DNA of 64,000 bases from an uncultured bacterium (GCA_964400165.1 CAYNSX010000004.1:5380-69379), one strand, 5' to 3'; positions 3,972 to 57,186 are shown, counted from the stretch's first letter. Notes: generated by a model from the letters alone, not told the origin. Program-made: numbers and translations.

Positions 3972-4220
3972 ATGTGGTTCCTCCAGACCATCCAAGTGCT
4001 CATCTCGCTGTTGCTGATCTTTCTCATTCTGGCGCAGACGACGCGCGCCGAGGGCGGCGGCGGGCTGCTGGGCATGGGCACCATCGGCGGCCAGGCCCGC
4101 GCCGCGTTCAAGACCCGCTCCGGCTTCGAGGAGCACATCGGGCGCATCACGGCCTGGGTGGCGTCGGTGTGGCTTGTCGTCTCGGCGATCCTCTCGGTCC
4201 TCTTCCTCGCCCGCGGGTAG
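3972..4220 (+). CDS. secG: preprotein translocase subunit SecG
   Basis: 82 aa: MWFLQTIQVLISLLLIFLILAQTTRAEGGGGLLGMGTIGGQARAAFKTRSGFEEHIGRITAWVASVWLVVSAILSVLFLARG. Two TM helices flank a Gly-rich loop, the SecG signature. Confidence 0.8.
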   Translation: MWFLQTIQVLISLLLIFLILAQTTRAEGGGGLLGMGTIGGQARAAFKTRSGFEEHIGRITAWVASVWLVVSAILSVLFLARG

Positions 4221-4259: not shown

Positions 4260-4345
4260 GCCCAGGTGGCGAAATGGTAGACGCGCTAGCTTGAGGGGCT
4301 AGTGGGCGCAAGCCCGTGGGAGTTCAAATCTCCCCCTGGGCACCA
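4260..4345 (+). tRNA. tRNA-Leu (anticodon GAG)
   Basis: Folded by hand: acceptor GCCCAGG/CCTGGGC, D arm GCGA-AATGGTAG-ACGC, anticodon stem CTAGC/GCTAG with loop TTGAGGG (anticodon GAG), a long variable arm GGGCGCAAGCCCGT as expected for type II tRNA-Leu, T arm GGGAG-TTCAAAT-CTCCC, discriminator A, then an encoded CCA. Confidence 0.85.
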
Positions 4346-4357
4346 GCACTGACCAGT

Positions 4358-4451
4358 GACCAGGAAGGCGGGGAGGCGGTGACCAGTGTGTCATGACGAC
4401 GCGTGATTGCGCCGTTCCTGCTTCCCTGCCTCCCCGCCTCCCCGGTTCCTG
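4358..4451. repeat. family-A palindromic repeat element (GACCAGGAAGGCGGGGAGGCGG ... CCGCCTCCCCGGTTCCTG hairpin)
   Basis: Inverted-repeat arms of about 22-30 nt flank a ~35-nt loop. Closely related copies sit at 14498-14570 and 16245-16312, and a half copy at 5905-5948. Confidence 0.5.
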
Positions 4452-4606
4452 TCGTTATGGAATAACCCTCCAATCCCCGTGCGCGCCGAACGGGCCGCCA
4501 AGGAGGGGTTCTGTGACCGACGCGCCGCACACACGCCGATTCCGATGCGGAGGGGCGAGACTGTGAAACGCTCGCTCACCTTCTCGCCGCCGGTCATTCA
4601 TCCCGC

Positions 4607-5812
4607 ATGACGCCGGACGACGGACAACCGAGCGGCGTGTCCGAGGGATTCGGCGCCGCACCGTCCAATGCCGCAACCGCGCGAGCGCGTTCTGCCGCAG
4701 CGCGCGGAACCGTGCGGACCGACAGCGCGGCCGCGCTCGACTCCGACACGGTGTGGCTCCTCTACCAGGCCGCGAAGTCGCTGGGCGGCACCTTCGAATT
4801 GGAACGCATCAGTGAACTCGCCGGCGCATTGCTCAATCACGCCGCGTCGGGCACGCTCACCACGATCTTTCTGCTGAACCCGGCGCGCAACATAGCGCTG
4901 GCGCCGCTGTGCACCGTCCCGGCGCGCGCCGCCACGACCTCGCCGGTGCCTTTGAGCCGCGGCGACCTCGATGCGCTGGTGGCGCTCGGCGCCCCGCTGC
5001 TGCTGCGCGGCGCCGAGGACGACCGCGCGTTCGAGTTCCTGTTCCGCGGCACCGCCTTCCGGCCGCCGGCGCTGCTCGTCCCGCTGTATGCGGACGCGTC
5101 GCTCGTCGGCGTGGCGTTGGTGGCCCTAGCCCCCGGCCACGCGGCGGTGAACGGCGAGCGCCGCGCGATCATCTCCGCGCTGGCGCGCAACATCGGCATC
5201 GCGGTGCAGAACAGTTCGTTCGTGAAGAACCTGGAAGATTTGTACCTGGGCACCATCCGCGCGCTCTCCAGCGCGCTGGGGCACGAGGATGACTATGCGC
5301 GCGGCCACGCCGACCGCGTCGCGGGCTATTGCCAGGAACTGTGTGACCGGCTGGGCGTGCCGGAAGTCGAGCGCAAGGCGCTGCTCGCCGCCGCCCACCT
5401 CGCCCAGATTGGCAAGGCGAAACTGCCCGAGTCGATCCGCCACAAGCGCGGCGGGCTGACCACCGAAGAGGTGCAGCAAGTGCGGCAGTACCCCGTCATC
5501 GGCGCCGAGTTCGTCGGCGACCTGGCGCTGCCCTGGGATGTGCAGGCGCTGGTGCGGCATCACCACGAACACTACGACGGCGGCGGCTATCCCGACCGGC
5601 TGGTGGGGGCTGCCATCCCGCGCGGCTCACGCATTCTCGGCATCGTAGACGCCTATTGCGCGATGGTGGCCGACCGCCCCTATCGCGTCCGGCTGACCCG
5701 CGCCGAGGCGATGGCGGAACTCCTCCGGCAGCGCGGCGCGCAGTTCGACCCCGTCATCGTCGATGTCTTCTGCCAATTGCTGGACGAAGAAGTCGCCCCG
5801 CCCCCCGCGTAG
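4607..5812 (+). CDS. GAF-domain HD-GYP phosphodiesterase (cyclic-di-GMP signalling)
   Basis: The C-terminal half carries the HD-GYP core ..RGHADRVAGYCQEL..HLAQIGKAKLPESI..HHHEHYDGGGYPDRL..IVDAYCAMVADRPYR. The N-terminal ~200 aa are GAF-like. Confidence 0.75.
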   Translation: MTPDDGQPSGVSEGFGAAPSNAATARARSAAARGTVRTDSAAALDSDTVWLLYQAAKSLGGTFELERISELAGALLNHAASGTLTTIFLLNPARNIALAPLCTVPARAATTSPVPLSRGDLDALVALGAPLLLRGAEDDRAFEFLFRGTAFRPPALLVPLYADASLVGVALVALAPGHAAVNGERRAIISALARNIGIAVQNSSFVKNLEDLYLGTIRALSSALGHEDDYARGHADRVAGYCQELCDRLGVPEVERKALLAAAHLAQIGKAKLPESIRHKRGGLTTEEVQQVRQYPVIGAEFVGDLALPWDVQALVRHHHEHYDGGGYPDRLVGAAIPRGSRILGIVDAYCAMVADRPYRVRLTRAEAMAELLRQRGAQFDPVIVDVFCQLLDEEVAPPPA

Positions 5813-5904
5813 TCCTCTGACGCTCCGCCAATCCACCTCACCCCGCCCTTCGGGCATCCCTCCCCGTCTCACGGAGAGGGGCCAGAGATGAAATCGTTCG
5901 GTTG

Positions 5905-5948
5905 TCCTCCTCCCCGCCTTCCTGCCTCCCTGCCTCCCCCGTTCCCCA
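5905..5948. repeat. half copy (C/T-rich arm only) of the family-A repeat
   Basis: CCTCCTCCCCGCCTTCCTGCCTCCCTGCCTCCCCCGTTCCCC matches the right arm of the 4.4 kb, 14.5 kb and 16.3 kb copies. No matching G-rich left arm lies nearby. Confidence 0.35.
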
Positions 5949-6098
5949 AGGTGTGGGGCCGCGGCCGTCACCGCCCCGTGACACGCCGCGGCCCACGATG
6001 CAATTTGTCAGTGCTCTCCGCCGGCCGGACCCGCGGATCGCTGCATGCGCGGGGGAGGAAAGCCGCCGCGGGCCGGCCGAGCAGAGAGATCACACTGG

Positions 6099-6126
6099 GC
6101 TCCGGTGGAGAGCGGTCCACCGGAGC
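6099..6126. terminator. 11-bp perfect hairpin GCTCCGGTGGA-gagcgg-TCCACCGGAGC between convergent genes
   Basis: It lies between the HD-GYP gene (+, ends 5812) and the sigma-54-type regulator (-, ends 6211). It is a candidate bidirectional terminator; no U-tract follows. Confidence 0.4.
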
Positions 6127-6210
6127 CGCCCAGGAGGAGTGAGGGAGAGGCCGAGGGGACATGCGGCTGCATGCCGACCCCCGGCGTGGAGTACTGGCCG
6201 GGACGGGAGC

Positions 6211-7449
6211 TCATGGCTCCGCGATCCCGGTGGAGTAGGCAAGTGACTCTTGTTCTGGAGGGACTGCCAATCGCCGTTCGATGAGGGCGTGCACCAATTC
6301 GTCGGGGACTTCGCCGTTCTCGGACAGGAGCAGCGCGCGCCGCATACAGGTCTCGAGTTCGCGCAAGTTGCCCGGCCAGTCGTAGCGCTCCAGCCGCGCC
6401 AGCACCGGCGGCGTCAGGTGCGGCACCGGTCGGTGCAGCGCCCGGGCGTGCAGCGCGAGGAAATGGCCGGCCAGGTGGGCGATATCTTCCACCCGCTCAC
6501 GCAGCGCCGGCAAGTGAAGCGCGACGCACCCCAGCCGCGCCGCCAGCCGCGGCGGGAAGTCGCGCAGCGTGCGCAGATCGCGCGTCGCGGTGGCGATGAC
6601 ACGCACATCGACGCGCGTCCCGCTGCCCGCGCCGACCGCGTGCACGCGCCCCTCCATCACCAGCCGCTCCAGGCGCACCAGCAAATCGTCCTGCGCCTGG
6701 TGCACGCGCCGCACCACCAGCGTGCCCAAGTCGGCCTGCAACGCCGCGCCCACTCGCTCCACCGCCCCGGCGATCGGTTCGCCCAGCAGTCCGAAGAGAA
6801 GTGCGGTCGGGTCGCTGCCGTTCCCGTTCGTGCAACTCGCCACCATCAGCGGCCCGCGGGACCGCAAACTCTTCTGATGCAGCGCCTGCGCCCAGACCAG
6901 TTTCCCGGTTCCGTGCTCGCCGAACAGCGCGACGGGCAGGTCTGAAGTGGCGAGCGCCTGCAAGGCCCGGAAGTATTCGCGCAATTGCGGGTGCGTCCCG
7001 ACCATCCCCTCGACCCGGCCCACGGCGCCGCTGTCGGGGCTGGCGTTGCGCTGCCGCGCCCGCTGCAGCGCATCGCGGAACGCCGACAGCACAAACGGAT
7101 TGGGCACCACCGCATCCGCCCCCCACGACAGCCCCTCCGACGCCCGCCCGAACACCAAACTGTCCGCCAGCAGCACCAGCACCGGCGTCGGCACCCTTGC
7201 CTTGATGCGGCTGCACAGCGACCGGGCCTCTTCGGCATTGGCGAGAAACGGCGCCACCACCAAGTCGGGCGCCGGCAGTGGCCAGGACTGCTCGTCCATC
7301 TGTGCCGCCACCGCCGTCCGATAGCCCTCTTCGGACAGGATGGTGGCGACCAGCGACGCCACCGCCTGCTCGATGCCGACCACCAGCGCGACCCGGGCCT
7401 CCGGGTGGAGTCCCGCCCGCGCGTCATCCGCTCGCCATCCGTTCGCCAC
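6211..7449 (-). CDS. sigma-54-interaction (AAA+ bEBP) domain protein with a receiver-like N-terminus; atypical (degenerate GAFTGA, no C-terminal HTH)
   Basis: Walker A FGEHGTGK is present, and the Walker B / arginine-finger region aligns with NtrC-type activators. The position of GAFTGA reads GEPIAGAV, and the C-terminus (..DWPGNLRELETCMRRALLL..) lacks a Fis-type HTH. Confidence 0.55.
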   Translation of the reverse strand: MANGWRADDARAGLHPEARVALVVGIEQAVASLVATILSEEGYRTAVAAQMDEQSWPLPAPDLVVAPFLANAEEARSLCSRIKARVPTPVLVLLADSLVFGRASEGLSWGADAVVPNPFVLSAFRDALQRARQRNASPDSGAVGRVEGMVGTHPQLREYFRALQALATSDLPVALFGEHGTGKLVWAQALHQKSLRSRGPLMVASCTNGNGSDPTALLFGLLGEPIAGAVERVGAALQADLGTLVVRRVHQAQDDLLVRLERLVMEGRVHAVGAGSGTRVDVRVIATATRDLRTLRDFPPRLAARLGCVALHLPALRERVEDIAHLAGHFLALHARALHRPVPHLTPPVLARLERYDWPGNLRELETCMRRALLLSENGEVPDELVHALIERRLAVPPEQESLAYSTGIAEP

Positions 7450-7745
7450 GGCTTCTCCATCAACCTGAAAAGCAAAACGCCCGCCGTGGTCCGAAGACCA
7501 CAGGCAGGCGTCGAGACCTGCACACTATTGTTGGGCCGGGTCGGCCCGATCAGGGTGCTCTAGTTCTCCATCGGTGTGCGGGGCGGCGACACGCCATGCC
7601 ATCCTGCAACATGCGTGTCACCCGCAGACCACACCAGCGGCTTTTTCCCCATCCGATGCACATTTTGAGAGGGGGTTTCTCCCGGCTGCGCTAGAATGGG
7701 AAAACAGGGCGACAGCCCGCCCCATACTGCCCTGTGCAATCCCAC

Positions 7746-8591
7746 ATGGCCACCGAGACGGACACCGTGACCACCGACCTGGCGCGCCTGGCCTCGACTG
7801 CCCGGCAGCTGCGCCGCGACATCATCCGGTGCACCACCGCCGCCGGCTCCGGGCATCCGAGCAGTTCGCTCTCGATGGTGGAACTGCTGACGGCGCTGTA
7901 CTTCGGCGGCGTGATGCGCTACGACCCGCACAACCCCCTCTGGCCCGACCGCGACCGCTTCATCCTCTCGAAAGGGCACGGCTGCCCGGGCTTGTACTCG
8001 GCGCTGGCCGAGGCGGGCTACTTCCCGCGCGAGTGGCTGCTGAAACTGCGCGACATCGACTGGCCGCTCGAAGGCCACCCGAAGCGCCACCCGGAACTCG
8101 GCATCGAAGCGGCGACCGGCTCGCTCGGGCAGGGCCTGTCGATCGCCATCGGGCACGCCCTCGCCTGCCGGCTCGACGGACGCGACGCGCGCGTCTACTG
8201 CATGCTCGGCGACGGCGAGTGTCAGGAGGGCCAAGTGTGGGAAGCGGCGATGGCGGCGACGCACTTCCACCTCGACTCGCTGACCGCCATCGTGGACCAC
8301 AACAAGTATCAGCAGACCGGCGCCGTCTTCACCACGATGGACTACCGCCCCTTCGCCGAGAAATGGCGTGCCTTCGGCTGGCACACCGACGAGATTGACG
8401 GCCACGACCAGCAAGAAGTGCTCGACGCCTTCGAGCGCGCCCGCGGCGTCTCCGGCCACCCGCAGGTCATCATCGCCCACACCATCAAGGGCAAAGGTGT
8501 GTCGCTGATGGAAACTGATTTCACTTGGCATGGAAGAGCATTGAGCGCGGAGCAGGCAGAGGTAGCATTGAAGGAAATCGGAGAAGACTGA
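7746..8591 (+). CDS. tkt: transketolase, N-terminal (TPP pyrophosphate-binding) subunit of a split transketolase
   Basis: ..CTTAAGSGHPSSSLSMVELLTALYFGGVMRYDPHNPLWPDRDRFILSKGHGCPGLYSALAEAGYF.. is the transketolase N-terminal section. It starts at the ATG 12 nt inside the track ORF (which begins at a GTG). Confidence 0.85.
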   Translation: MATETDTVTTDLARLASTARQLRRDIIRCTTAAGSGHPSSSLSMVELLTALYFGGVMRYDPHNPLWPDRDRFILSKGHGCPGLYSALAEAGYFPREWLLKLRDIDWPLEGHPKRHPELGIEAATGSLGQGLSIAIGHALACRLDGRDARVYCMLGDGECQEGQVWEAAMAATHFHLDSLTAIVDHNKYQQTGAVFTTMDYRPFAEKWRAFGWHTDEIDGHDQQEVLDAFERARGVSGHPQVIIAHTIKGKGVSLMETDFTWHGRALSAEQAEVALKEIGED

Positions 8592-8596
8592 ACTTG

Positions 8597-8626
8597 CAGG
8601 AAACAAGGAAACAAGGAAACGAGGGT
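8597..8626. repeat. left inverted repeat (GGAAACAAGGAAACAAGGAAACGAGG) flanking the four-helix-bundle gene
   Basis: Its reverse complement, CCTCGTTTCCTCGTTTCCTCG, recurs at 9103-9131 as an imperfect inverted repeat. Confidence 0.5.
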
Positions 8627-8638
8627 CGGCTGACCTTC

Positions 8639-9094
8639 GTGGACGAGGCCTTGCCGGGTTTCAAGAATCTGGTGGCCTGGCAGAGAGCAAGGCGTCTGGC
8701 CGCCCTGGTTGACGAGTTTGCGAAGGGATTTCCCCGCTTGGAAGGAGTTCTACGATCGCAGATGCGGCGCACCGCGATTTCAGTCGGCGCCAACATTGCC
8801 GAGGGTTACTGTCGCGGCGCGATCGGCGATTACATCCGCTACTGCGAAATCGCGCGCGGGTCTCTCGGCGAGCTCGGGAATCACCTCGCGCACGCGGAAG
8901 ACATCGGACTCGCGACACAGTGTCCGTGGTATCCCAAACTGCTCGACGCCTATAGCGAGACACTCGCGGTCCTCAACGGTTTAGTCGCCGCGCTGAAGCG
9001 TAAGAGAGATACCGGGGAATGGGATCGGTCCTTCGCCGTGCGTGAATTCGCCGCGCCGTACATCGGCACCCAAATCGAGGAATCATCGTCATGA
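8639..9094 (+). CDS. four-helix-bundle protein (TIGR02436-like, 23S rRNA intervening-sequence protein family)
   Basis: ..NLVAWQRARRLAALVDEFAKGFPRLEGVLRSQMRRTAISVGANIAEGYCRGAIGDYIRYCEIARGSLGELGNHLAHAE.. matches the conserved core of this family. The start is taken as the in-frame GTG just after the tkt-N stop; it is uncertain. Confidence 0.6.
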   Translation: MDEALPGFKNLVAWQRARRLAALVDEFAKGFPRLEGVLRSQMRRTAISVGANIAEGYCRGAIGDYIRYCEIARGSLGELGNHLAHAEDIGLATQCPWYPKLLDAYSETLAVLNGLVAALKRKRDTGEWDRSFAVREFAAPYIGTQIEESSS

Positions 9095-9102
9095 ACTCGA
9101 CC

Positions 9103-9131
9103 CAATCCTTGTTTCCTCGTTTCCTCGTTTC
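9103..9131. repeat. right inverted repeat (CCTTGTTTCCTCGTTTCCTCGTTTCCTCG)
   Basis: Partner of the repeat at 8597-8626. A shorter related motif, CCTCGTTTCCTTG, also occurs at about 3918-3930. Confidence 0.5.
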
Positions 9132-9149
9132 CTCGCCGTTGGATTTGCA

Positions 9150-10097
9150 ATGATGTCGCGCCCTCTTGGAAAGGCAACCAGAGACGGCTTCGGCGAAGCC
9201 CTCCGCGACCTCGGTGCGGTGGATGCCTCGTTCATCGTCCTCGACGGCGATGTAAACAATTCCACCCGCACCGAATACTTCGCCTCTAAGTACCCCGACC
9301 GGTTCTTCAATGTCGGCATCGCCGAGTCGAACCTGGTCGGCGTCGCGTCGGGCATCGCCTCGAACGGACGCACCACCTGGCTGGCCAGTTTCGCCGCCTT
9401 CCTGATGTGCAACGCCTTCGACCAATTGCGGATGTCGGTCGCGGTGCCCGGCCTGCCGGTCAAGTGCGTCGGCAGTCACGCCGGCATTTCCATCGGCGAA
9501 GACGGCCCCTCGCAGATGGCCATCGAAGATGTCGCGCTCGCCTGCGCGCTGCCCGGCTTCACCGTCGTCGTGCCCGCCGATGAATACACCGCCCGCGCCG
9601 CCGTCCCCGCGCTGCACCGGATGGACGGTCCGTGCTACCTGCGGGTCGGGCGCCCGAAAGTGCCCGTCGTCTACAGCAACGGCTCGGCGCTCTTTGAAAT
9701 CGGTCGCGCCAATCGCTTGCGCGAGGGCGGCGATGTGACGATTGTCGCCAACGGGTTGCTAGTCGCCCCGGCGCTCGACGCCGCCGACACCCTCGCCGGC
9801 GAGGGTGTCGAAGCCCGTGTGCTCGACATGCACACCGTCCGCCCGCTCGACGCTGAAGCGCTCCTGGCGGCGGCGAACGAGACCCGCGGCCTTGTCGTCG
9901 CCGAAGAGCACCTCATCGAGGGCGGGCTCGGCAGCCGCATCGCCGTCCTGCTCGCGCAACAGCGACCCTGCCCGATGCGGTTCGTCGGCCTGACCCGTTA
10001 CGCGGAATCGGGCAAGTCGGAAGCGCTGCTCGAGAAATACCACCTGACCGCGTCCGACATCGCCGCCGCCGCCCGCGACCTGCTGCGCGCGCGCTAG
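9150..10097 (+). CDS. tkt: transketolase, C-terminal (pyrimidine-binding plus C-terminal domain) subunit
   Basis: MMSRPLGKATRDGFGEALRDLGAVDASFIVLDGDVNNSTRTEYFASKYPDRFFNVGIAESNLVGVASGIA..GSHAGISIGEDGPSQMAIEDVALACALPGFTVVVPAD.. The start is the ATGATG 108 nt inside the track ORF. Confidence 0.85.
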   Translation: MMSRPLGKATRDGFGEALRDLGAVDASFIVLDGDVNNSTRTEYFASKYPDRFFNVGIAESNLVGVASGIASNGRTTWLASFAAFLMCNAFDQLRMSVAVPGLPVKCVGSHAGISIGEDGPSQMAIEDVALACALPGFTVVVPADEYTARAAVPALHRMDGPCYLRVGRPKVPVVYSNGSALFEIGRANRLREGGDVTIVANGLLVAPALDAADTLAGEGVEARVLDMHTVRPLDAEALLAAANETRGLVVAEEHLIEGGLGSRIAVLLAQQRPCPMRFVGLTRYAESGKSEALLEKYHLTASDIAAAARDLLRAR

Positions 10098-10120
10098 GCG
10101 CCTGGCCTGACCCGTCGCCG

Positions 10121-12802
10121 ATGAGCCATCCCGCCTCGGCCCGCTGGATCGTCTGCAAGTTCGGCGGCACCAGCGTCGCCACGCGCGCTCGCTGGGACAC
10201 GATCGTCGCCATTGCACGCGAGCGCCTCGCCGAAGGGCTGCGCCCGGTCCTGGTGTGTTCCGCGCTCGACGGCGTCTCGGACGACCTCGAGCGCTGCGTC
10301 GAGGAGGCCGTTCGCGGCAAGCAGCAACCAATCCTGGACGCCATCGCCGCGACGCACTACGCGCTCGGCGACGCCCTCGGCCTCAATGCGGACACATTGC
10401 TCCGTGCCGACTTCGAGGTGCTGACCGGTCTTCTCGCGGCCATTGCGGAGGCGAAAGAGATCACTCCGGCTCGCCACGCCCGCGTCCTGGCGACGGGGGA
10501 ACTCCTCGCCACCCGCCTCGGCGCCGCGTTCTGCAACGCCTCCAGCCTGCCGACCGCCTGGGTGGACGCGCGCTCCTGCCTCGTGTCCACCGACGAGCAG
10601 CATGTCGGCGAGACGCGGCGCATGCTCTCCGCCGTCTGCGCCGCGGAACCGGACCCGGCTCTCGCCGCGCAATTCGCGGCGCTGCCCGAATCGGTCCTTG
10701 TGACGCAGGGGTTCATCGCCCGCTTGGCCGGCGGTGACACGGTCTGCCTGGGGCGCGGCGGCTCCGACACTTCGGCGGCGATCTTCGCCGCCCGGCTGGG
10801 CGCCGTCCACTGTGAAATCTGGACCGATGTGCCTGGGATGTTTTCCGCGGACCCGCGGCAGGTGCCCGCGGCGCGGCTGCTCCGGGCGCTCGACTACGAC
10901 GAGGCCCAGGAGATTGCGACGACCGGCGCCAAAGTGCTGCACCCGCGGTGCATCGCGCCGCTGCGCCAGCACCGCATCCCCCTCCACATCCGCTGGATCG
11001 AGCGACCGGAGTGGGCCGGAACCGTGGTGTCGGGTGACCCGGGCGAAGCCGGCCCGCAAATCAAGGCGATCTCCGCCAAAGGCGACATCACGCTCATCGC
11101 GATGGACACGCCCGGCATGTGGCAGCAGGTCGGTTTCCTCGCCGACACTTTCGCCGTCTTCCAGCGGCACGGCCTCTCGATTGACCTCGTGTCCACTTCC
11201 GAAATGAATGTCACCGTCTCGCTCGACCCGGGCGCCAACCTGCTCGACCCCGGCGCGCTGCATGCGCTGCTGGAAGACCTCCGCCCGCTGTGCACTCCGC
11301 GGACCATCGGCCCCTGTGCCGCGGTCAGTCTGATCGGGCGTAACATCCGAGGGCTGCTGCACGAACTGGGGCCCGCGCTCGAATTGTTCGGGGAGCACCG
11401 CATTCATCTCGTCTCGCAAGCGGCCAGCGACCTCAATTTTACCGTCGTCGTCGACGCCGGCCAGGCGGAGCCGCTCGTCCGGCAGCTGCACGCGCTCTTC
11501 TTCGAGGACCGGGCGGATGATGCGCTCCTCGGCCCGAGTTGGCGCAGTCTGTTTGCAGGCGGCGATGCGCCCGCAGCCACGGATGAAGTGACGGGCCCGA
11601 CGGTGTGGTGGCGCCAGCGGCGCGACGAATTGCTGGCCCTGGCGCGCGCCGCTGCGCCGCTCTATGTGAACGATGCCGCGTCGCTCGACGCCGCGGCCGC
11701 CCGCCTGCAGCGGCTCGCCGCCGTCGACCGCGTGTTCTACGCGCTCAAGGCCAACTCCCACCCCACGATCCTCGAGCGCTTCGCCGCCGCGGGGCTGGGG
11801 TTCGAATGCGTCTCGCCGGGCGAGATCGCCCGGGTCTTGCACACGGTCCCCAGGATCGATCGGCAGCGTATTCTCTTCACGCCGAACTTCGCCCCGCGCC
11901 ACGAATACGCCGACGCGTTCGCCGCCGGCGTGATGGTGACGCTCGACAACGCCTACCCGCTCGAGCGCTGGCCCGATATCTTCCGCGGCAGGGCGGTGTT
12001 CCTCCGCCTCGACCCGGGCCGCGGGCGTGGACACCATGCCTATGTCCGCACCGCCGGCGCGCAGTCGAAATTCGGCATCGCGGAGTTGCAACTCGACGAC
12101 CTCGCGGCGCGCCTCCGTGCATTGGATGTCCGGGTCATCGGCCTGCACGCGCATATCGGCAGCGGCATTCGTGACGCCGGCAGTTGGCTGGAAACGGCCG
12201 AGTTTCTGGCACGGAACGCAGCAAGATTCCCGGAAGTGACCGCGCTCGACCTCGGCGGCGGCCTCGGCGTCCCCGAACAGCCCGGTCAGGTGCCGCTCGA
12301 CTTGGCGGCGTTCGACGCGTCGTTGCAGCAGTTCAAGGCCGCGCACCCGCAGTTCGAACTGTGGCTGGAACCGGGGCGCTTCCTGGTCGCTGAAGCGGGC
12401 GTGCTCCTGGCGCGTGTGACGCAGGTTAAGCGCAAAGGCGACATCACCTTTGTCGGCATCGAGACCGGGATGAACTCACTCATTCGCCCGGCGCTCTACG
12501 GGGCGCACCACGAGATTGTGAACCTGACCCGCCTCGACGAACCGCCCGACCTGACGGCGAACATCGTCGGGCCGATTTGCGAATCCGCCGATGTCCTAGG
12601 CGCCGGCCGCCATCTGCCACCGACAGAGGAGGGCGATGTCTTGCTAATCGCCACCGCCGGCGCCTACGGCGCCGCCATGTCCTCGCACTACAACTTGCGC
12701 GAACCCGCCGCCGAAGTCATGTTGCCGCCGGCTACAACCGCGCCGCGGCGCACCAATTCGCGGAAAGGGCGCCCAGCGAAACAGCCGAGGCCCGCGCCGT
12801 GA
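10121..12802 (+). CDS. lysAC: bifunctional aspartate kinase / diaminopimelate decarboxylase (LysC-LysA fusion)
   Basis: The N-terminal ~450 aa are aspartokinase (..IVCKFGGTSVATRARWDTIVAI..VLVCSALDGVSDDL.. plus ACT-like region). The C-terminal ~430 aa are a PLP-dependent DAP decarboxylase (..PLYVNDAASLDAAAARLQ..VFYALKANSHPTILERFAAAGLGFECVSPGEIARV..). Confidence 0.8.
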   Translation: MSHPASARWIVCKFGGTSVATRARWDTIVAIARERLAEGLRPVLVCSALDGVSDDLERCVEEAVRGKQQPILDAIAATHYALGDALGLNADTLLRADFEVLTGLLAAIAEAKEITPARHARVLATGELLATRLGAAFCNASSLPTAWVDARSCLVSTDEQHVGETRRMLSAVCAAEPDPALAAQFAALPESVLVTQGFIARLAGGDTVCLGRGGSDTSAAIFAARLGAVHCEIWTDVPGMFSADPRQVPAARLLRALDYDEAQEIATTGAKVLHPRCIAPLRQHRIPLHIRWIERPEWAGTVVSGDPGEAGPQIKAISAKGDITLIAMDTPGMWQQVGFLADTFAVFQRHGLSIDLVSTSEMNVTVSLDPGANLLDPGALHALLEDLRPLCTPRTIGPCAAVSLIGRNIRGLLHELGPALELFGEHRIHLVSQAASDLNFTVVVDAGQAEPLVRQLHALFFEDRADDALLGPSWRSLFAGGDAPAATDEVTGPTVWWRQRRDELLALARAAAPLYVNDAASLDAAAARLQRLAAVDRVFYALKANSHPTILERFAAAGLGFECVSPGEIARVLHTVPRIDRQRILFTPNFAPRHEYADAFAAGVMVTLDNAYPLERWPDIFRGRAVFLRLDPGRGRGHHAYVRTAGAQSKFGIAELQLDDLAARLRALDVRVIGLHAHIGSGIRDAGSWLETAEFLARNAARFPEVTALDLGGGLGVPEQPGQVPLDLAAFDASLQQFKAAHPQFELWLEPGRFLVAEAGVLLARVTQVKRKGDITFVGIETGMNSLIRPALYGAHHEIVNLTRLDEPPDLTANIVGPICESADVLGAGRHLPPTEEGDVLLIATAGAYGAAMSSHYNLREPAAEVMLPPATTAPRRTNSRKGRPAKQPRPAP

Positions 12803-13590
12803 CCCCGCACTTGCTGGTTGCGCTCATCGCGCTCTCCGCCGCGGCGCTGACGCTGTTCTCCGGCTTCGGCCTCGGCACCATCCTGCTGCCGGTGTTTGCT
12901 CTGTTCTTCCCCGTCGAAATCGCCGTCGCCGCGACGGCCATCGTGCATCTGGCGAACAACCTCTTCAAGATCGGCCTCATCGGCCGCCACGCGCACTGGC
13001 CCACCGTGGCGCGCTTCGGCATCCCCGCCGCAGTCGGCGCGCTCCTCGGCGCCGAAGCGCTCGTCCGGCTGGGCACGCTGCCGCCTGTCGCCACCTATGC
13101 GCTCGGAACGACCGACCACACCATTACGCTGGTGCATCTCGTCATCGGATCGCTCATCTTCGTCTTCGCGCTCGTCGAACTGCTGCCCGCCGGGCAGCGC
13201 CTCGGTTTTGGCCGCCGCTACCTCGGCATCGGCGGCGCACTGTCGGGGTTTTTCGGGGGCGTCTCGGGGCATCAGGGTGCGCTGCGCTCCGCCTTCCTCA
13301 TCAAGGCCGGACTGACGAAGGAGCAGTTCATCGGCACCGGCGCGGTCGCCGCCGTCTTCGTGGATGTGTCCCGGCTGGTGGTCTACGGGCTGGCGTTCGT
13401 CGGCGACCCCTGGGCCGCGCTCCGGGGCTCCGGCGCGTTGGCGCTGGTCGTAACTGGTACCGTTGCCGCGTTCCTTGGCTCCTATTTCGGCGCCCGGCTG
13501 CTCCCCCGCCTGACGCTGGCGAGCGTCCGCCTCATCATCGGCGTCCTGCTGTTGGTGATGTCCGTCGCCATCGCCACGGCCCTCGTCTAG
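12799..13590 (+). CDS. TauE/SafE (TSUP) family sulfite/anion exporter
   Basis: Two-fold repeat of 4-TM units (..LFSGFGLGTILLPVFALFFPVEIAVAATAIV.. / ..GGALSGFFGGVSGHQGALRSAFLIKAGL..). It starts at a GTG overlapping the lysAC stop (GTGA). Confidence 0.7.
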   Translation: MTPHLLVALIALSAAALTLFSGFGLGTILLPVFALFFPVEIAVAATAIVHLANNLFKIGLIGRHAHWPTVARFGIPAAVGALLGAEALVRLGTLPPVATYALGTTDHTITLVHLVIGSLIFVFALVELLPAGQRLGFGRRYLGIGGALSGFFGGVSGHQGALRSAFLIKAGLTKEQFIGTGAVAAVFVDVSRLVVYGLAFVGDPWAALRGSGALALVVTGTVAAFLGSYFGARLLPRLTLASVRLIIGVLLLVMSVAIATALV

Positions 13591-13603
13591 ACCCAGTCAT
13601 CCA

Positions 13604-13654
13604 TTGACTCCCTCCAAAAGTTAGGATAACCTAACTTTAGTTAGGCACTCCTAA
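13604..13654 (+). promoter_or_regulatory. promoter (-35 TTGACT, -10 TAACCT) overlapped by two AT-rich palindromic operator-like sites GTTAGG-ataa-CCTAAC and GTTAGG-cact-CCTAA
   Basis: A perfect 6+4+6 palindrome (13620-13635) and a second near-palindrome (13640-13654) sit between the -35 element and the RBS GGGGAGG of the outer-membrane gene starting at GTG 13671. The sequence is strikingly AT-rich for this genome. Confidence 0.5.
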
Positions 13655-13670
13655 ATCAAGGGGAGGAACC

Positions 13671-14486
13671 GTGGTGACTGGCCGATTGCTGCACTTTCCA
13701 AGATTGCTGCTGTTGCTCGCTGCACTTGCCGCAGGTCTCTTCGTTCCGATGGAGTCCGCCACGGCTGATGAAGAGGACGAATATGAATTCTCTCGCCCTT
13801 TCATCACCGAATACCCCGAAGCCGACACCGAACTGCGCTTGAGTTTCTTCGTCATCAAAGGCGACCGCGAGCCCGGGCGCACACACCTAGTCCGGCTCTT
13901 GGCCGAGTACGCCTTCCGGCACAACGCCAGCATCGAGATTGAGATCCCGTGGGCCAACTTTCGGCCGGTCGGCGGTTCCTCCGTCAGCCATGTCGGTGAC
14001 ATCGAACTCGGCCTGAAGTTCGTCACCGGCGAGAGCGAGGCGCGCGGCACCGCCACCGCGCTCGGCCTCGAAGTCCGGGCGCCGACCGGCAGCAGCGCCC
14101 TCGGCATCGGCAGCAGCAGTGTGTGGGAACTGGAGCCGTTCTTCGTATTCGGGCGCCGACACGGCGACTGGGAAACGATCGGCGTCGTCCGGCTGGGCTT
14201 CCTCTTCAACGAGCCCGCCGGCGAACCGTCAGAGACGGAACTCGGTTTCGACCTCTCGCTGCTGCGTCACTTGAGTGAGCGCTGGCAGGCGCTGGTCGAG
14301 ATCAATGGCGAGCACGGCCTGCGCGGCGAGGAGGCGGGCGCGACGCTCGTCACCCTCACGCCCGGCCTCAAGTGGCGCCCCAACCCGCACCGCGGCGAGC
14401 AAATCGGCATTGGCGCCAGTTTCCCCGTCACCGGGCCGCGCGAATTCACCAGCCGCGTCTTCCTGATGCTGTTCAAGCCGATGTAA
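13671..14486 (+). CDS. outer-membrane beta-barrel protein (MetA-pathway / transporter-like family), secreted
   Basis: Signal peptide (LLHFPRLLLLLAALAAGLFVP), alternating amphipathic beta strands, a C-terminal aromatic residue pattern, and ..VGDIELGLKFV... Confidence 0.5.
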   Translation: MVTGRLLHFPRLLLLLAALAAGLFVPMESATADEEDEYEFSRPFITEYPEADTELRLSFFVIKGDREPGRTHLVRLLAEYAFRHNASIEIEIPWANFRPVGGSSVSHVGDIELGLKFVTGESEARGTATALGLEVRAPTGSSALGIGSSSVWELEPFFVFGRRHGDWETIGVVRLGFLFNEPAGEPSETELGFDLSLLRHLSERWQALVEINGEHGLRGEEAGATLVTLTPGLKWRPNPHRGEQIGIGASFPVTGPREFTSRVFLMLFKPM

Positions 14487-14497
14487 CAACCAAAGGG

Positions 14498-14570
14498 ACC
14501 AGGGAGGCGGGGAGGCGGGGAGGCAGTGGAGCATTGACTGCGTTCCCGCCTCCCTGCCTCCCTGCTTACC
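14498..14570. repeat. family-A palindromic repeat element between convergent genes
   Basis: GACCAGGGAGGCGGGGAGGCGGGGAGGCAG ... CGTTCCCGCCTCCCTGCCTCCCTGCTTACC. Confidence 0.5.
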
Positions 14571-14576
14571 TAGTCT

Positions 14577-16160
14577 TTAGTCATTCCAATCCGGCGGCCA
14601 ATTGCCCGCCGCCTTGGCGTCGGCGCTGAAAACATCCCACTCGGCATCGGTGAAGCGCCGCACGCTCCCGTCGAGCATCGCCGCGAACACATACCCGCGC
14701 GGCCAGGCGAGGAACGCGAGCGGCACCCCCTGCGGGTTCGGCCGCCCCATCACCATCTGCCCGGGCTGAATCAAGAAACTCACCAGCGCCTCGCCCCCGG
14801 GCGCGCCGAGCGAGTCACTATTCGGCAGCAAGGAACCCACCATGCCCAGGATGCCCTCGGGAAAACTTTCCGCATTCAAGTCAGGGAACCGACTCCCCCA
14901 CACCTTGAGGACATTTTGGAGTGCCGCGGACACCTCACGCATCCGCGACTCGGCGAGTTGCAGCTTCTGCTCATCGCTCAACGGGAGCCCATAGTGCGCC
15001 CGCTCGTCGAGCGTGGCGTCATCCAGGCGAAGGTCAGCCAGCCAAATCTGCCCGCCACGGACAAAACAGACACTCAATGAATCCCCCGCCCATTCCGCTT
15101 CGAAAGACGCATCTGCCGCCACCAACAGCGTGTTGTGACTCCGTCGTTCGGGATTCAGCGCCCACAGGAGAAACAAGTTGCCCTTCCACTCATTCCGCAC
15201 CTCGTCGCGCAGCGGAATCGAAGAGCCGAAGAGCAGCAAGTCATGCTTCGCCGACCAGCCGAGAATGGGGCCCGAGTCACGGGTCACGACTTGCGACTCG
15301 CCCGAGTGCAAGTCAATGACCGACCTGAACACCGTGTCCGCGGCTTGGTCGTGTGCCAACTCGACGCGAAACCGTCCGCTCGGCGATTGCAATCGAATCG
15401 GCCATCGCGTTATGCCAACAACCATATCTCGTTCGAGCAAGACCGATTGCCCCGCTTCGAGGTCGTAATTTACCAACTTTCCTTGCCGGCGTTCACTCCC
15501 GTCGGCATCCACAACACGCTGCGACGCCAAGAATTCGATGCCGTCGCCTTCGGCGTTCCAGCGCGGGATGATTCCCTCACCCACTACGGTAACCGCTCCC
15601 GTCCTCGCGTCAGCCAGCAGGACCTGCGACGGCGTGTCGGGGCTTCGCATGGTGCCAATCAGGATTCGCGTTCCTTGCGGCTCGCAGGCGACAGTCTGTA
15701 AGCGGGCGCCGCCCAACGTGTGCGTCTGGCTCTGCCAGGTGCGCGCATCGAAGACGCGCACCTCGCGCACCTCTCCGTTCTCATTCAGCCACGGCACCAC
15801 CAGTATCGGTGCGCCCTGGCACCAACAGAGGTCGGGATTCAGCCCGCCAGCGAACATCATTTCAGCCTTTAGCAAAACCCGCGGCATCCCTCCGGATGCG
15901 GGGATGACGCTCACCCGCGGCCCCATCATCCGCACCGTGGCGCCCGTCCGGGAATCAGCAACCGGATACGACAGTTCCAGATACGCGATCCACTTCCCGT
16001 CCGGGCTGGCCGCCAGCGAATACACTTCCGCATCGTGGGTCAGTTGCCGCGAGCCGCCCGCGCGGGCGATCTGGTCACCGACGACCATGACTGGATCGGG
16101 CCGCGTAGATCCCGCCGCCGCGAGAATCATCACCCAAGGAACTAGCCAGCCGTTCGCCAT
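14577..16160 (-). CDS. periplasmic PD40/TolB-like beta-propeller protein with an unassigned C-terminal domain
   Basis: Signal peptide MANGWLVPWVMILAAAG, followed by repeated ..SPDGKWIAY.. / ..GQIWLADL..-type blades. The start is taken at M28 of the track ORF. Confidence 0.55.
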   Translation of the reverse strand: MANGWLVPWVMILAAAGSTRPDPVMVVGDQIARAGGSRQLTHDAEVYSLAASPDGKWIAYLELSYPVADSRTGATVRMMGPRVSVIPASGGMPRVLLKAEMMFAGGLNPDLCWCQGAPILVVPWLNENGEVREVRVFDARTWQSQTHTLGGARLQTVACEPQGTRILIGTMRSPDTPSQVLLADARTGAVTVVGEGIIPRWNAEGDGIEFLASQRVVDADGSERRQGKLVNYDLEAGQSVLLERDMVVGITRWPIRLQSPSGRFRVELAHDQAADTVFRSVIDLHSGESQVVTRDSGPILGWSAKHDLLLFGSSIPLRDEVRNEWKGNLFLLWALNPERRSHNTLLVAADASFEAEWAGDSLSVCFVRGGQIWLADLRLDDATLDERAHYGLPLSDEQKLQLAESRMREVSAALQNVLKVWGSRFPDLNAESFPEGILGMVGSLLPNSDSLGAPGGEALVSFLIQPGQMVMGRPNPQGVPLAFLAWPRGYVFAAMLDGSVRRFTDAEWDVFSADAKAAGNWPPDWND

Positions 16161-16244
16161 CCTGCACCTCCCCGCTGCGTTCACTCGCCTGCCGATTCTA
16201 CTCTCCCCGCCCCCGAAAACAACCGGGCCGCGATACGACAAAGT

Positions 16245-16312
16245 GACCAGGAAGGCGGGAACGCAGGGAGGCAGTGACTGCCTTCCTGCCTTCCCGCCTC
16301 CCCGGTTCCTAG
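16245..16312. repeat. family-A palindromic repeat element abutting the stop codon of the peroxiredoxin gene
   Basis: GACCAGGAAGGCGGGAACGCAGGGAGGCAGTG-ACTGCCTTCCTGCCTTCCCGCCTCCCCGGTTCCTAG is a near-perfect palindrome. The TAG stop of the upstream gene lies at its edge. Confidence 0.5.
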
Positions 16313-16914
16313 TTTTTGCCCTGCAGTTCCGCGAGCTTCTTTGCCAGGTCGGCGCCGTGCGTCTTCACACTCACCTTCAGATCGATGTAGCGGACAACGC
16401 CGTCCGGGTCAATGATGAAGGTGCCGCGCTTGGACATGAATTGGACATCGAAGCCGCGCGCTTTCATTTGGGCTTGCTGGTCAGCCGTCAGCATCTGCAG
16501 CATCCCGTAGGACTTCGAGATCTTGCCGTCGGCGTCTACCAGCAGCGGAAACTGGAAGTTGTTCTTCTCGGCGAACTCCTTGTGCGTCTCCTTGCCCTGC
16601 GCGCTGATGATGAAAATGGAAGCGTTGAGTGCTTTCAGATTGGCTTGCTCATCACGGAGCGAGCACCCCTGCAGCGTTCAGCCCCCCGTATTGTCGAGGA
16701 CATAGAACGAGAGGATGACCCAGTCCTTCCCCTTGTGGTCGGCGAGGCGCTGTCGCTTGTCGTTCTGATCGGTGGTGTCGAAGAGGGGGGCCTTGTCGCC
16801 CGCCTTCAGTTGCGGTTCGTCCACTGTCGGTCCTTCCGCGGCGGTCACGCGCGGCGCCGCCAGCATCACGGCGACCAGCGCGCACACGCCCAGCATCCGA
16901 ATGGCTTGTCGCAT
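16309..16914 (-). CDS. secreted BCP/PrxQ-type peroxiredoxin with in-frame TGA (candidate selenocysteine) at the peroxidatic-Cys position; 201 codons if read through
   Basis: Track ORFs 16678..17013 and 16309..16503 lie in the same frame and are separated only by a TGA at 16678-16680. The read-through product ..WVILSFYVLDNTGG[TGA]TLQGCSLRDEQ..GTFIIDPDGVVRYI.. aligns with E. coli Bcp ..[23 protein letters not shown].., so the TGA sits on CP and the resolving Cys is kept. An N-terminal signal peptide (MRQAIRMLGVCALVAVMLAAPRVTA) is present. Confidence 0.6.
16643..16664 (-). ncRNA. candidate bacterial SECIS hairpin 14 nt downstream of the in-frame UGA
   Basis: mRNA UGA-ACGCUGCAGGGGU-[GCUcGCUC-CGUGAU-GAGCaAGC]: an 8-position stem with one C.A mismatch and a 6-nt apical loop containing GU at +26/+27 relative to the U of UGA. 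The spacing is close to the 11-nt-spacer / apical G,U rule known from E. coli fdhF. Confidence 0.35.
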
Positions 16915-16945
16915 TGCGCTCTCCAATTCTCCAGCCCCGCGTATC

Positions 16946-17392
16946 TTACTCGGTTTTGGAAGTGCTCTCCCCCGGCCAGTGCAGCGGCATCGTCGGGCGG
17001 TCGAGCATCTCACGCACCTTCACCGGCGCGTCGGGCGCCGGATGCAGGCGCGGCAGGTCGCCCGGAGCCGCCGGGTCGCGCCCGAAGGCGGCGACGAAGC
17101 GGTCGAGGTCGCGCCGCAGCCGCGCCAAGTCGATGCCGCGGTAGCGCGGCGGCAGTTGGTCGAGTTTCTCGATGCAGTGTTCGTGCAGCCCGCGCACGCC
17201 GGCGAGATTGCCCCGGCTCCAGTGATAGACCGTCACCGCCGCCTGAATCAGCGCGTGATAGAAAGTGCGCTCGTCGCCGTGCACCTGCTTCCACAACGCT
17301 TCCAGCACCTCGTGACACTGGAAGTAGTCGCCCTCGTTGAACAGGGCGATGCCGCGCAGGAAGTCGGGGTGCAGCGCCGGGTCAGGCGGCAT
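16946..17392 (-). CDS. DUF309-family protein
   Basis: ..LRGIALFNEGDYFQCHEVLEALWKQVHGDERTFYHALIQAAVTVYHWSRGNLAGVRGL.. is the DUF309 signature. The start is M70 of the track ORF; it overlaps the upstream peroxiredoxin stop by about 11 nt. Confidence 0.55.
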   Translation of the reverse strand: MPPDPALHPDFLRGIALFNEGDYFQCHEVLEALWKQVHGDERTFYHALIQAAVTVYHWSRGNLAGVRGLHEHCIEKLDQLPPRYRGIDLARLRRDLDRFVAAFGRDPAAPGDLPRLHPAPDAPVKVREMLDRPTMPLHWPGESTSKTE

Positions 17393-17929: not shown

Positions 17930-18150
17930 TTCTCCCCTCTCCCGAGTCGGGAGAGGGACTTCGCGTCTACCACTTGTTTAATCCTCTCCCCTCTCCGCTC
18001 GTCGGAGAGGGGCTGGGGGTGAGGGCTTTGTCCCCCTCACCCGGCCTGCGGCCACCCTCTCCCGTTTGGGAGAGGGACTACTCATCTACCATTCGTATTC
18101 AATGCCCCCTCTCCTCACAGGAGAAGGGGTCAGGGGGCTTGCCCTTCGTA
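17930..18150. repeat. tandem array of four family-B hairpin units (CCTCTCCC-N5-6-GGGAGAGGG ACT...TCTACCA)
   Basis: Hairpins TCTCCCgagtcGGGAGA, CTCTCCgctcgtcGGAGAG, CTCTCCCgtttGGGAGAG and CTCTCCtcacaGGAGAAG recur about every 55 bp between the aquaporin stop and the peroxiredoxin start. A related pair occurs at 23104-23235. Confidence 0.5.
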
Positions 18151-18898: not shown

Positions 18899-19006
18899 GT
18901 GCGTCGTCCCTTTCTCCTATGCGCCGGTGTGTCGTCCCGCTGTCACTGGTGCGGATTTGCACACGCAAGCCCGATTCGGGGCGGCGCGGCGGCCTTCCTG
19001 CCTCGC

Positions 19007-19036
19007 TTGACCCACTCCCCGACGCCCCGCTACTAT
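19007..19036 (+). promoter_or_regulatory. candidate sigma70 promoter TTGACC -N18- TACTAT for the FBP aldolase/phosphatase gene
   Basis: Lies in the 196-bp divergent region between aqpZ and fbp, about 60 nt upstream of the fbp ATG. Confidence 0.35.
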
Positions 19037-23103: not shown

Positions 23104-23235
23104 CCCCTCGCCAATGTCAGGGAGAGGGGATTACAAGCACCGTGGGGCGCTGGCTGTGCCTCTCCTCTTCAGGGAGAGGGTGTCCACCGAAGCCTGATGT
23201 TTGGGCGAAGGAGGGCGGGAGAGGGACTTTACACC
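23104..23235. repeat. family-B hairpin units abutting the mrp stop codon
   Basis: CCTCGCCaatgtcaGGGAGAGGGGA, CCTCTCCtcttcaGGGAGAGGG and GGGAGAGGGACTTTACACC. The last unit matches GGGAGAGGGACTTcgcg at about 17951. Confidence 0.4.
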
Positions 23236-26823: not shown

Positions 26824-26865
26824 ACGGGTGTCGGGTGTCGGGTGTCGGGTGTGGGGTGTCGGGAA
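26824..26865. repeat. (GGGTGTC)x5 heptamer tandem repeat followed by CTAACTA-type repeats
   Basis: ACGGGTGTCGGGTGTCGGGTGTCGGGTGTGGGGTGTCGGG contains six GGG runs with 4-nt spacers, so it has G-quadruplex potential. It lies in the intergenic region between convergent genes. Confidence 0.6.
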
Positions 26866-26938
26866 ACGAAGAGTGCGGGTGACGGGCCGGACAGACCGCA
26901 GTTCCTACTAACTACTAACAACTAACGCTTTCTCTGCC

Positions 26939-35671: not shown

Positions 35672-35759
35672 CAGGACATCCACAGGATTGGCATACTAAT
35701 AAAACAAAAGTTTGAATATCGAGACGCATGGAAAGTCTGTACAGTCCGAAGGGAAAGCC

Positions 35760-36701: not shown

Positions 36702-36719
36702 GTTACGACAAGTCCGCGA

Positions 36720-57064: not shown

Positions 57065-57186
57065 GGCTTCAGCCCCCTTGTGGCAAGCCAACATGCCAAT
57101 GCCCTGACTTCGTGCGCGGCGCCTCAATCCCTGCCACCCTGCCCCTGCCCTGCGTAGCCCGGAGGGCGAAGCAGGGTCCCTGGTCC

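Follow-up and report, generated by a model that had tools for sequence, protein, structure and literature searches.

We analysed a stretch of 64,000 nucleotides from a 71.9-kb contig of an uncultured high-GC bacterium (GCA_964400165.1, CAYNSX010000004.1:5380-69379), referred to as a whole as the window. In its 4-17 kb region it carries long palindromic hairpin elements with arms built of tandem octamers. Three elements possess both arms and a fourth is a half copy. The initial annotation had located three inverted repeats and a half copy here, and direct reading as well as an inverted-repeat search confirmed all four sites, the three hairpins ranking second to fourth among the 93 inverted-repeat pairs of the window. 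Their limits had to be redrawn, as the spans including the conserved ends are about 4354-4451, 14494-14573 and 16242-16310.

4354-4451: copy 1; G-rich arm of 2 octamers (4363-4378), loop of 40 nt, C-rich arm of ~3 octamers (4419-4442); ends AGTGACCAGG and CCCCGGTTCCT; arms in the inverted-repeat search 4354-4382/4423-4451, 29 nt, 79% complementary, 40 nt between
5905-5948: half copy; solo C-rich arm of ~4 octamers, right-end-like CCCCCGTTCCCC kept, no partner arm
14494-14573: copy 2; arms of 3 + 3 octamers, loop of 9 nt; arms in the search 14500-14527/14537-14564, 28 nt, 89% complementary, 9 nt between
16242-16310: copy 3; stem of 33 bp, loop TGA; arms in the search 16246-16275/16277-16306, 30 nt, 87% complementary, 1 nt between

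Anatomy and gene context of the hairpin elements

The arms consist of two to four head-to-tail GGRAGGCR octamers, with the complement on the opposite arm (period 8 in Tandem Repeats Finder). GGRAGGCRGG occurs 14 times in the window as compared to 1.33 expected occurrences, a number reached in 0 of 100 shuffles, and 13 of the 14 are located within the four elements, the remaining one, at 27795, being intragenic. Outside the octamers the copies have in common their ends, AGKRACCRGG on the left and the complement CCYGGTYCCT on the right, and the apex, CAGT-loop-ACTG. The terminal motif AGKRACCRGGRAGG is found five times in the window (0.25 expected), at element ends only. The complete plan reads A-rich flank, AGKRACCRGG, 2-4 GGRAGGCR, CAGT-loop-ACTG, YGCCTYCC octamers, CCYGGTYCCT, T-rich flank, with 36% A in the left 15 nt and 44% T in the right 15 nt against a background of 17% for each; the T-rich tails are interrupted (TTCCTGTCGTT, TTCCTAGTTTTT). 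Whole elements comprise 65-100 bp, and their loops of 3-48 nt contain no open reading frame (ORF).

Folded as RNA, either strand of the three hairpins reached -51 to -67 kcal/mol with z-scores of -4.4 to -8.5, and 0 of 200 shuffles was as stable. The half copy, being a C-rich arm alone, did not fold (z about -0.5). Where a stem of 25-30 bp had been proposed initially, the stems measure 22-34 bp, and the arms have an octamer structure that had gone unmentioned. The copies are, however, not near-identical as had been stated but share a consensus only: mean column identity was 58% in an alignment of nine sequences from the window and from the relative described below, and copies vary in octamer number, in their loop and in whether A or G occupies two of the unit positions.

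To place the elements among their neighbours we used a gene map based on Pfam, tRNA and ORF calls, which comprises the following features.

3972-4220: SecG
4260-4345, plus strand: tRNA-Leu(GAG), preceding copy 1; context, not part of the repeat
4607-5812, plus strand: HD-GYP gene
6211-7449, minus strand: sigma-54 activator
7734-8591: TktN
8598-9133, plus strand: PF05635 cassette with an ORF at ~8639-9094, between TktN (stop 8591) and TktC
~9150 (ATG) to 10097: TktC
10121-12802: aspartokinase/diaminopimelate decarboxylase fusion (LysAC)
up to 13590: TauE-like gene
13671-14486, plus strand: MetA-like porin
14577-16160, minus strand: 527-aa protein, function unassigned
16227-16239, minus strand: what is left of the ancestral intrinsic terminator (3' stem half and CCGGTTGTTTTC), following directly on copy 3 in the sense of this strand, identified by alignment with the relative and by a terminator-like scan match
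16309-17000, minus strand: AhpC/TSA peroxiredoxin; stop 16309-16311, in-frame TGA 16678-16680

According to this map every copy is placed at a 3' end, in line with the location in 3' spacers and between convergent genes noted initially. Copy 1 lies 9 nt past the end of tRNA-Leu and 156 nt upstream of the HD-GYP gene, and the half copy is located in the spacer of two convergent genes, HD-GYP with its stop at 5812 and sigma-54 activator with its stop at 6211. Copy 2 fills the 90-nt spacer of the convergent stop codons at 14486 (plus strand) and 14577 (minus strand), 13-14 nt from both. The right end of copy 3 is 3 nt from, or overlaps, the peroxiredoxin TAG at 16309-16311, which belongs to the element end, so that the reported abutment on this stop codon holds. 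The same copy is located 86 nt upstream of the start of the gene for the 527-aa protein (16160).

In the peroxiredoxin gene itself the in-frame TGA is found where the peroxidatic Cys would be encoded (FYVLDNTGG-TGA-TLQGC), and the gene of the relative is split at the same place (called as 78 + 112 aa), which is consistent with a conserved selenocysteine. Bacterial selenocysteine insertion sequence (SECIS) elements directly follow the UGA. As the TGA is ~370 nt away from copy 3, we ruled out that this copy serves as SECIS element.

Turnover in a relative and wider distribution

For the 527-aa protein a single homologue, with 43% identity, was found in a collection of 5.8 billion proteins, and the LysAC fusion has one homologue at 79% identity, the next best being at 64% and the best named relatives at 60-64% in several phyla, indicating that the lineage is very poorly sampled. 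The only relative found provides a contig (L120/L121; 386 kb, ENA ERZ27248239 k141_33957) that is syntenic across the whole 4-17 kb region. In addition, metagenome JGI 3300010391 contains a contig identical to window 14435-16612. The two genomes are 64% identical at 4-fold degenerate sites, which is near saturation at this GC content of third codon positions (GC3).

Comparison of the individual sites revealed both retention and turnover of the elements. Copy 1 is orthologous to a hairpin at ~21060-21170 of L120, which has one octamer more on the C-arm, and the two are 81-83% identical in the arms and 74% in the loop as compared to the 64% at 4-fold sites. Copy 2 is absent from the relative, where porin gene and 527-aa gene are only 6 nt apart. 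Octamer arrays are present in the spacer between the HD-GYP and sigma-54 activator genes of either genome, but neither their position nor their strand agrees. In the relative, the peroxiredoxin gene is followed by a canonical terminator, a GC stem with a TTGTTTTC tail. At the same site of the window the 3' half of the stem and the tail are kept and copy 3 replaces the 5' half; the last residues of the peroxiredoxin differ between the two genomes. Judged from this alignment, copy 3 appears to take the place of an ordinary terminator.

Scanning metagenomes with a 23-nt end-plus-arm pattern yielded 20 stretches, 8 of which belong to five large contigs from the sample that contains the relative. 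In total, the relative has at least eight further copies at non-orthologous loci with the same ends and apex, supporting the dispersed family postulated initially. Its metagenome contains full hairpins in L123, L133, L141 and L142 (two), solo arms in L130, L138 and L141, and degenerate copies in L123 and L142, the latter contig carrying three copies inside 3 kb. Many of these copies overlap a stop codon or lie 2-14 nt away from one, most being within 0-15 nt. The hairpins therefore constitute a genuine repeat family, specific to this lineage, of long palindromes with arms made of tandem octamers.

A hairpin with the left end of the family, AGTGATCAGGAAGGCAGGAACGCAGG, was also present in another organism of ~54% GC, the same locus of which was recovered from six metagenomes (L125, L129, L135, L136, L137, L139). 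Its C-arm is T-rich (CTTTCCTGTTTCCCTGTTTTCC) and many of the pairs are G-U, so that folding is restricted to the RNA of one strand.

We also asked how widely the octamer arrays occur. Among the matches listed, (GGRAGGCR)x3 was found in more than 118 stretches in representative genomes of many GC-rich phyla. Most of these matches are plain G-rich arrays lacking a C-arm; about 12 are G-arm/C-arm hairpins, mainly from Sorangium/Polyangiaceae and Gemmatimonadales, with ends of their own. Where flanking genes could be called, the spacers were convergent in 20 cases and divergent in 2, a count obtained with a crude GC3-based gene caller. In viral contigs two composition-matched permuted octamers formed 10 and 7 tandem stretches, the real unit 11. 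Since the permuted octamers are about as frequent, we dropped the idea of a single homologous family across phyla and regard the plain arrays as generic microsatellites without homology to the present family.

Possible role of the elements and alternative explanations

The reading that we favour, as the probable one if by no means a certain one, is that the elements are lineage-specific, non-autonomous palindromes resembling REPINs, i.e. doublets of repetitive extragenic palindromic (REP) sequences, and miniature inverted-repeat transposable elements (MITEs), and that they serve as portable bidirectional transcript-end elements. Anatomy, family membership, positions and presence or absence in the relative can be read from the sequences, whereas transcription, termination, RNA processing and the way of spreading are inferred. 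In the course of evolution gene 3' ends would acquire and lose copies. Transcription from either direction would produce one and the same hairpin of high stability, with the G-arm first and an imperfect U-rich tail behind it, and as the hairpin would be the same from either strand, the most likely role is a bidirectional one at transcript ends, as terminator and/or block for 3' exonucleases. Having stems of more than 22 bp, the elements may also be RNase III targets. The A-rich and T-rich flanks, together with the one copy at the site of the relative's canonical terminator, make a terminator role plausible; measured by terminator criteria, stem and position of the elements fit, the tails being T-rich but interrupted. 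A consensus scan for terminator-like structures in 1-20 kb gave 15 hits versus 12.3 expected, i.e. no enrichment of ordinary terminators, and leaves the elements themselves uncalled, since it accepts only shorter stems and loops.

Several results argue against this reading. The U-tracts are imperfect (UUCCUGU...). All four copies are clustered within 12 kb, and motif scans revealed no further copy in the remaining 48 kb of the window. Pfam scans of ~38 ORFs covering most of the window identified no transposase of any kind; in particular, the search for a REP-associated tyrosine transposase (RAYT) or IS200-like Y1 transposase suggested in the initial annotation was negative among these ORFs. 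No direct repeats indicative of a target-site duplication flank copies 1-3, the empty site of the relative being too diverged to define the junction. In the alignment of nine copies 85% of the cells pair, yet 484 of 500 arm shuffles pair at least as well, demonstrating that pairing reflects the shared consensus and not compensatory change. Finally, the better-folding strand, as determined by G-U versus A-C mismatches, does not follow the sense of the neighbouring gene and is the antisense strand for the tRNA-Leu copy in both genomes. We had considered this strand asymmetry as a sign of selection at the RNA level and dropped it for lack of agreement with gene orientation.

The non-Watson-Crick cells are mostly G-T or A-C, that is, transitions at the two variable unit positions. 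Over 68 units, positions 1, 2, 4, 6 and 7 are at least 96% invariant, a value inflated by some ascertainment bias as unit detection tolerated up to 2 mismatches, while position 3 is G in 71% and A in 26%, and position 8 A in 54% and G in 46%. An FtsK-orienting polar sequence (KOPS) or Chi-like octamer was set aside as an explanation of the unit, which matches GGGNAGGG at 7 of 8 positions, never exactly, and whose inverted layout would be senseless for a polar signal. Rfam gave no match, with sub-threshold scores to generic miRNA-precursor hairpin models only, and literature searches on the sequence, on the flanks of PF05635 genes and on the cyanobacterial repeats mentioned below returned nothing describing the elements.

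Comparison with known repeat classes revealed partial similarities. REP sequences and REPINs are short, non-coding, palindromic, dispersed and often clustered, they mostly follow closely on genes, both singlets and doublets exist, and their presumed mode of action is that of hairpins in RNA (PMC3733652, PMC3116915). The elements of the window are likewise dispersed at gene 3' ends, palindromic and clustered, with solo arms, and to this extent the initial assignment to REP sequences or bacterial interspersed mosaic elements (BIMEs) is justified. REPs, however, have stems of 5-13 bp in units of 20-40 bp with a GTAG or CGTC tag outside the stem at one end, the GTAG type being associated with RAYTs (PMC3733652), and in a REPIN two REP units, imperfect palindromes themselves, are arranged in inverted orientation on either side of a short spacer (PMC3116915). 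In contrast, no element end carries either tag, the stems, given as 25-33 bp for the copies of the window, and the whole elements are longer than those of REPs, and the arms are direct tandem octamers without internal palindrome. Thus, the elements are not REPs by definition. With MITEs they share conserved, mutually complementary terminal inverted repeats, unlike these having neither a target-site duplication at copies 1-3 nor a transposase among the window ORFs scanned. The Correia elements of Neisseria and the enterobacterial repetitive intergenic consensus (ERIC) sequences also have terminal inverted repeats, form a long RNA hairpin, lie adjacent to genes and may supply stop codons or terminators, and Correia hairpins are RNase III substrates. 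The present elements differ from them in that the arms are internally repetitive and the element is essentially all stem; no parent insertion sequence was found. Mycobacterial TRIT, a conserved repeated intrinsic-terminator motif, and the paired DNA-uptake sequences of Neisseria and Haemophilus, which form terminators, are repeated sequence families that double as terminator hairpins, whereas for the present elements termination is only proposed; stems are of ordinary length in both, and TRIT has proper U-tracts. The short tandemly repeated repetitive (STRR) sequences of cyanobacteria are short tandem heptamers in intergenic spacers of one lineage, with no function assigned. Tandem 7-8-nt spacer units are common to both, unit and lineage differ, and the palindromic layout with conserved ends sets the present elements apart. 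The family represents a novel type of REP/MITE-like repeat in a lineage that has hardly been sampled, and the apparent replacement of an ordinary terminator by one copy is of use for annotating where transcripts end in uncultured bacteria of high GC content, which have few canonical terminators.

A cargo-bearing element in the window is linked to the GGRAGGCR hairpins by architecture and polarity, not by sequence. The ORF of the cassette between TktN and TktC belongs to PF05635 (23S rRNA intervening sequence (IVS) protein, 'four helix bundle'; E 1.5e-21) and lies between (AGGAAACA)x3 (8598-8629) and the complementary array (9102-9133), 32 nt each and 84% complementary, with the purine-rich arm first. 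The cassette is a 560-nt insertion, as TktN and TktC overlap in the relative, where it is absent. TTGCA is found at both outer junctions. We identified seven further independent PF05635 loci (L143, L145, L146, L149, L150, L152, L153) with proteins 37-53% identical to that of the window. In all eight sampled loci the gene is in sense orientation between co-oriented, often operon-like neighbours (for example ADH-ADH, histidine kinase-response regulator, hisC-hisB, DUF58-BatA) and is bracketed by inverted tandem arrays of 7-10-mers, 30-50 nt long and 75-94% complementary, the purine-rich arm being upstream in 8/8. The units at the further loci are GGGGAAAGAA, GGGGGAACTC, GGGAGCTCGT, GGGGAACTCA, GGGAACTNNN, AGGCAAW and AGTGACGG. 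Arms begin at most ~20 nt from the upstream stop codon and finish at most ~20 nt from the downstream start codon. ORF-less hairpins with the cassette's own unit adjoin the cassettes in L145, L146 and L149. Moreover, L062, from Gemmatimonadales, contains a PF05635 gene with a (GGGAGGCA)x3 arm, and in the viral contig L154 GGAAGGCA arms ~580 nt apart surround a reverse-strand ORF. This ORF of ~190 aa (IMG/VR UViG_3300044953_000401, reverse complement, ~385-1010), which to the eye resembles a small cytosine methyltransferase, lies within AATTTGGAAGGCAGGAAGGCAGG... inverted octamer arms.

PF05635, a very common family, represents the functionally uncharacterised ORF of 23S rRNA IVSs, which are excised by RNase III (PMC11270868), and resembles Avd, a protein of diversity-generating retroelements (PMC10053308); we found no description of arrays flanking PF05635 genes in the literature. 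Like the complementary ends of an IVS, which form a long stem looping the insert out of the host RNA, the cassette arms would join the upstream stop codon to the downstream start codon and keep the insertion silent. It is conceivable, though we think it rather doubtful, that several phyla harbour an undescribed insertion class with complementary end arrays of tandem 7-10-nt units, purine-rich arm first, which exists in a cargo form with PF05635 in operon spacers and, represented by the GGRAGGCR hairpins, in a cargo-less form at 3' ends. We regard this connection as the part most worth following: if PF05635 genes generally travel in tandem-repeat stems, this would be a first handle on how they spread and are tolerated in operons and rRNA.

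Applied to the hairpins of the window, this alternative makes them ORF-less members, their cargo deleted or never loaded, of a class of tandem-repeat-armed stems that are looped out of the transcript, and we consider it possible at best. The uniform polarity and sense orientation at 8/8 loci, the insertion in the window relative to the syntenic relative, the ORF-less hairpins beside three cassettes, the octamer arms in L062 and L154 and the established RNase III excision of IVSs (PMC11270868) are in favour of it. On the other hand, unit and ends of the window cassette are not homologous to those of the hairpins, a PF05635 gene is present at only 2 of the 118 GGRAGGCR-array loci among the matches listed, every cassette sampled is of the same subfamily (37% or more identity to the window protein), the polarity in L014 may be reversed, and no mobility mechanism is known. 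The hairpins are located outside rRNA and share no sequence with the cassette arms; as their loops hold no ORF, they are not cassettes of the IVS type. Less likely still is that the elements are immobile and arose in place by slippage of octamer microsatellites and inverted duplication, their similarity reflecting a common mutational process in GC-rich spacers. Partnerless (GGRAGGCR)n arrays are indeed common in many GC-rich phyla and permuted octamers form arrays about as often; the window has other 7-8-mer arrays after stop codons (26825-26926), octamer number differs between orthologous copies, and one spacer carries different arrays at different positions in the two genomes. However, unlinked loci have in common the CAGT..ACTG apex and the non-repeat ends, and the arms within a copy match no better than arms across copies, which counts against an origin by fold-back, as this predicts a better match within copies.

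The arms might instead be sequence-specific binding arrays with the hairpin being secondary, such as Shine-Dalgarno-like GGAGG ribosome holders, protein-binding arrays or formers of G-quadruplexes or i-motifs, an explanation to which we attach little credence. Five invariant unit positions beside two free ones that do not covary with the partner arm, a universal G-arm-first polarity, some solo G-arrays stopping a few nt short of a start codon (L138) and a two-unit motif next to a -35-like box in both genomes would agree with it, but full copies bury both motifs in a stem of -50 to -67 kcal/mol, the invariance is overestimated by the tolerant unit detection, slippage alone homogenises units without selection, and no candidate binding factor is known. 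The least probable explanation, which we find hardly credible, is that of classical REP/BIME elements whose mobilising RAYT is encoded in another part of the genome: 3'-end location, palindromes, solo arms and clustering are as in REP/REPIN families (PMC3733652, PMC3116915), but tag, short stems and palindromic arms are lacking, and no Y1 transposase was detected among the window ORFs scanned.

Other repeats and genes in the window

A second repeat family is located at 5859-5885, 17934-18130 and 23121-23129. Its members are small hairpins of the form CCCCTCTCC-N-GGAGAGGGG, in many cases with GGGGTGAGGG behind them. GGAGAGGGG occurs 6 times versus 0.74 expected. Four of these small hairpins stand in a row in the 17.9-18.1 kb spacer, and one adjoins an octamer element in L138.

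Arrays of 7-8-mers at 3' ends are common in this genome. At 26825-26926 (CGGGTGT)x5.6 begins 2 nt after the stop codon of a G5/3D-domain gene, and (CTACTAA)x3 precedes the convergent stop codon; there is no complementarity between the two arrays. The two-unit motif GCGAGGCAGGAAGGCC at 18991-19006 is conserved in the divergent MIP/FBPase spacer of the relative (L120, 7357-7372) and is located directly upstream of a -35-like TTGACC (promoter-like match 19007-19036).

Two further regions stand out by their gene content. A low-GC island at 35712-37805 (55% versus 66%) encodes a D12-class N6-adenine DNA methyltransferase and, adjacent to it, a 361-aa ORF without Pfam match, and is possibly a restriction-modification system acquired from elsewhere. 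An 1855-aa ORF on the minus strand (52706-58273) codes for a large cell-surface protein; it contains three SLH domains along with PQQ-like repeats and, at 52724-53176, a 207-bp tandem repeat.

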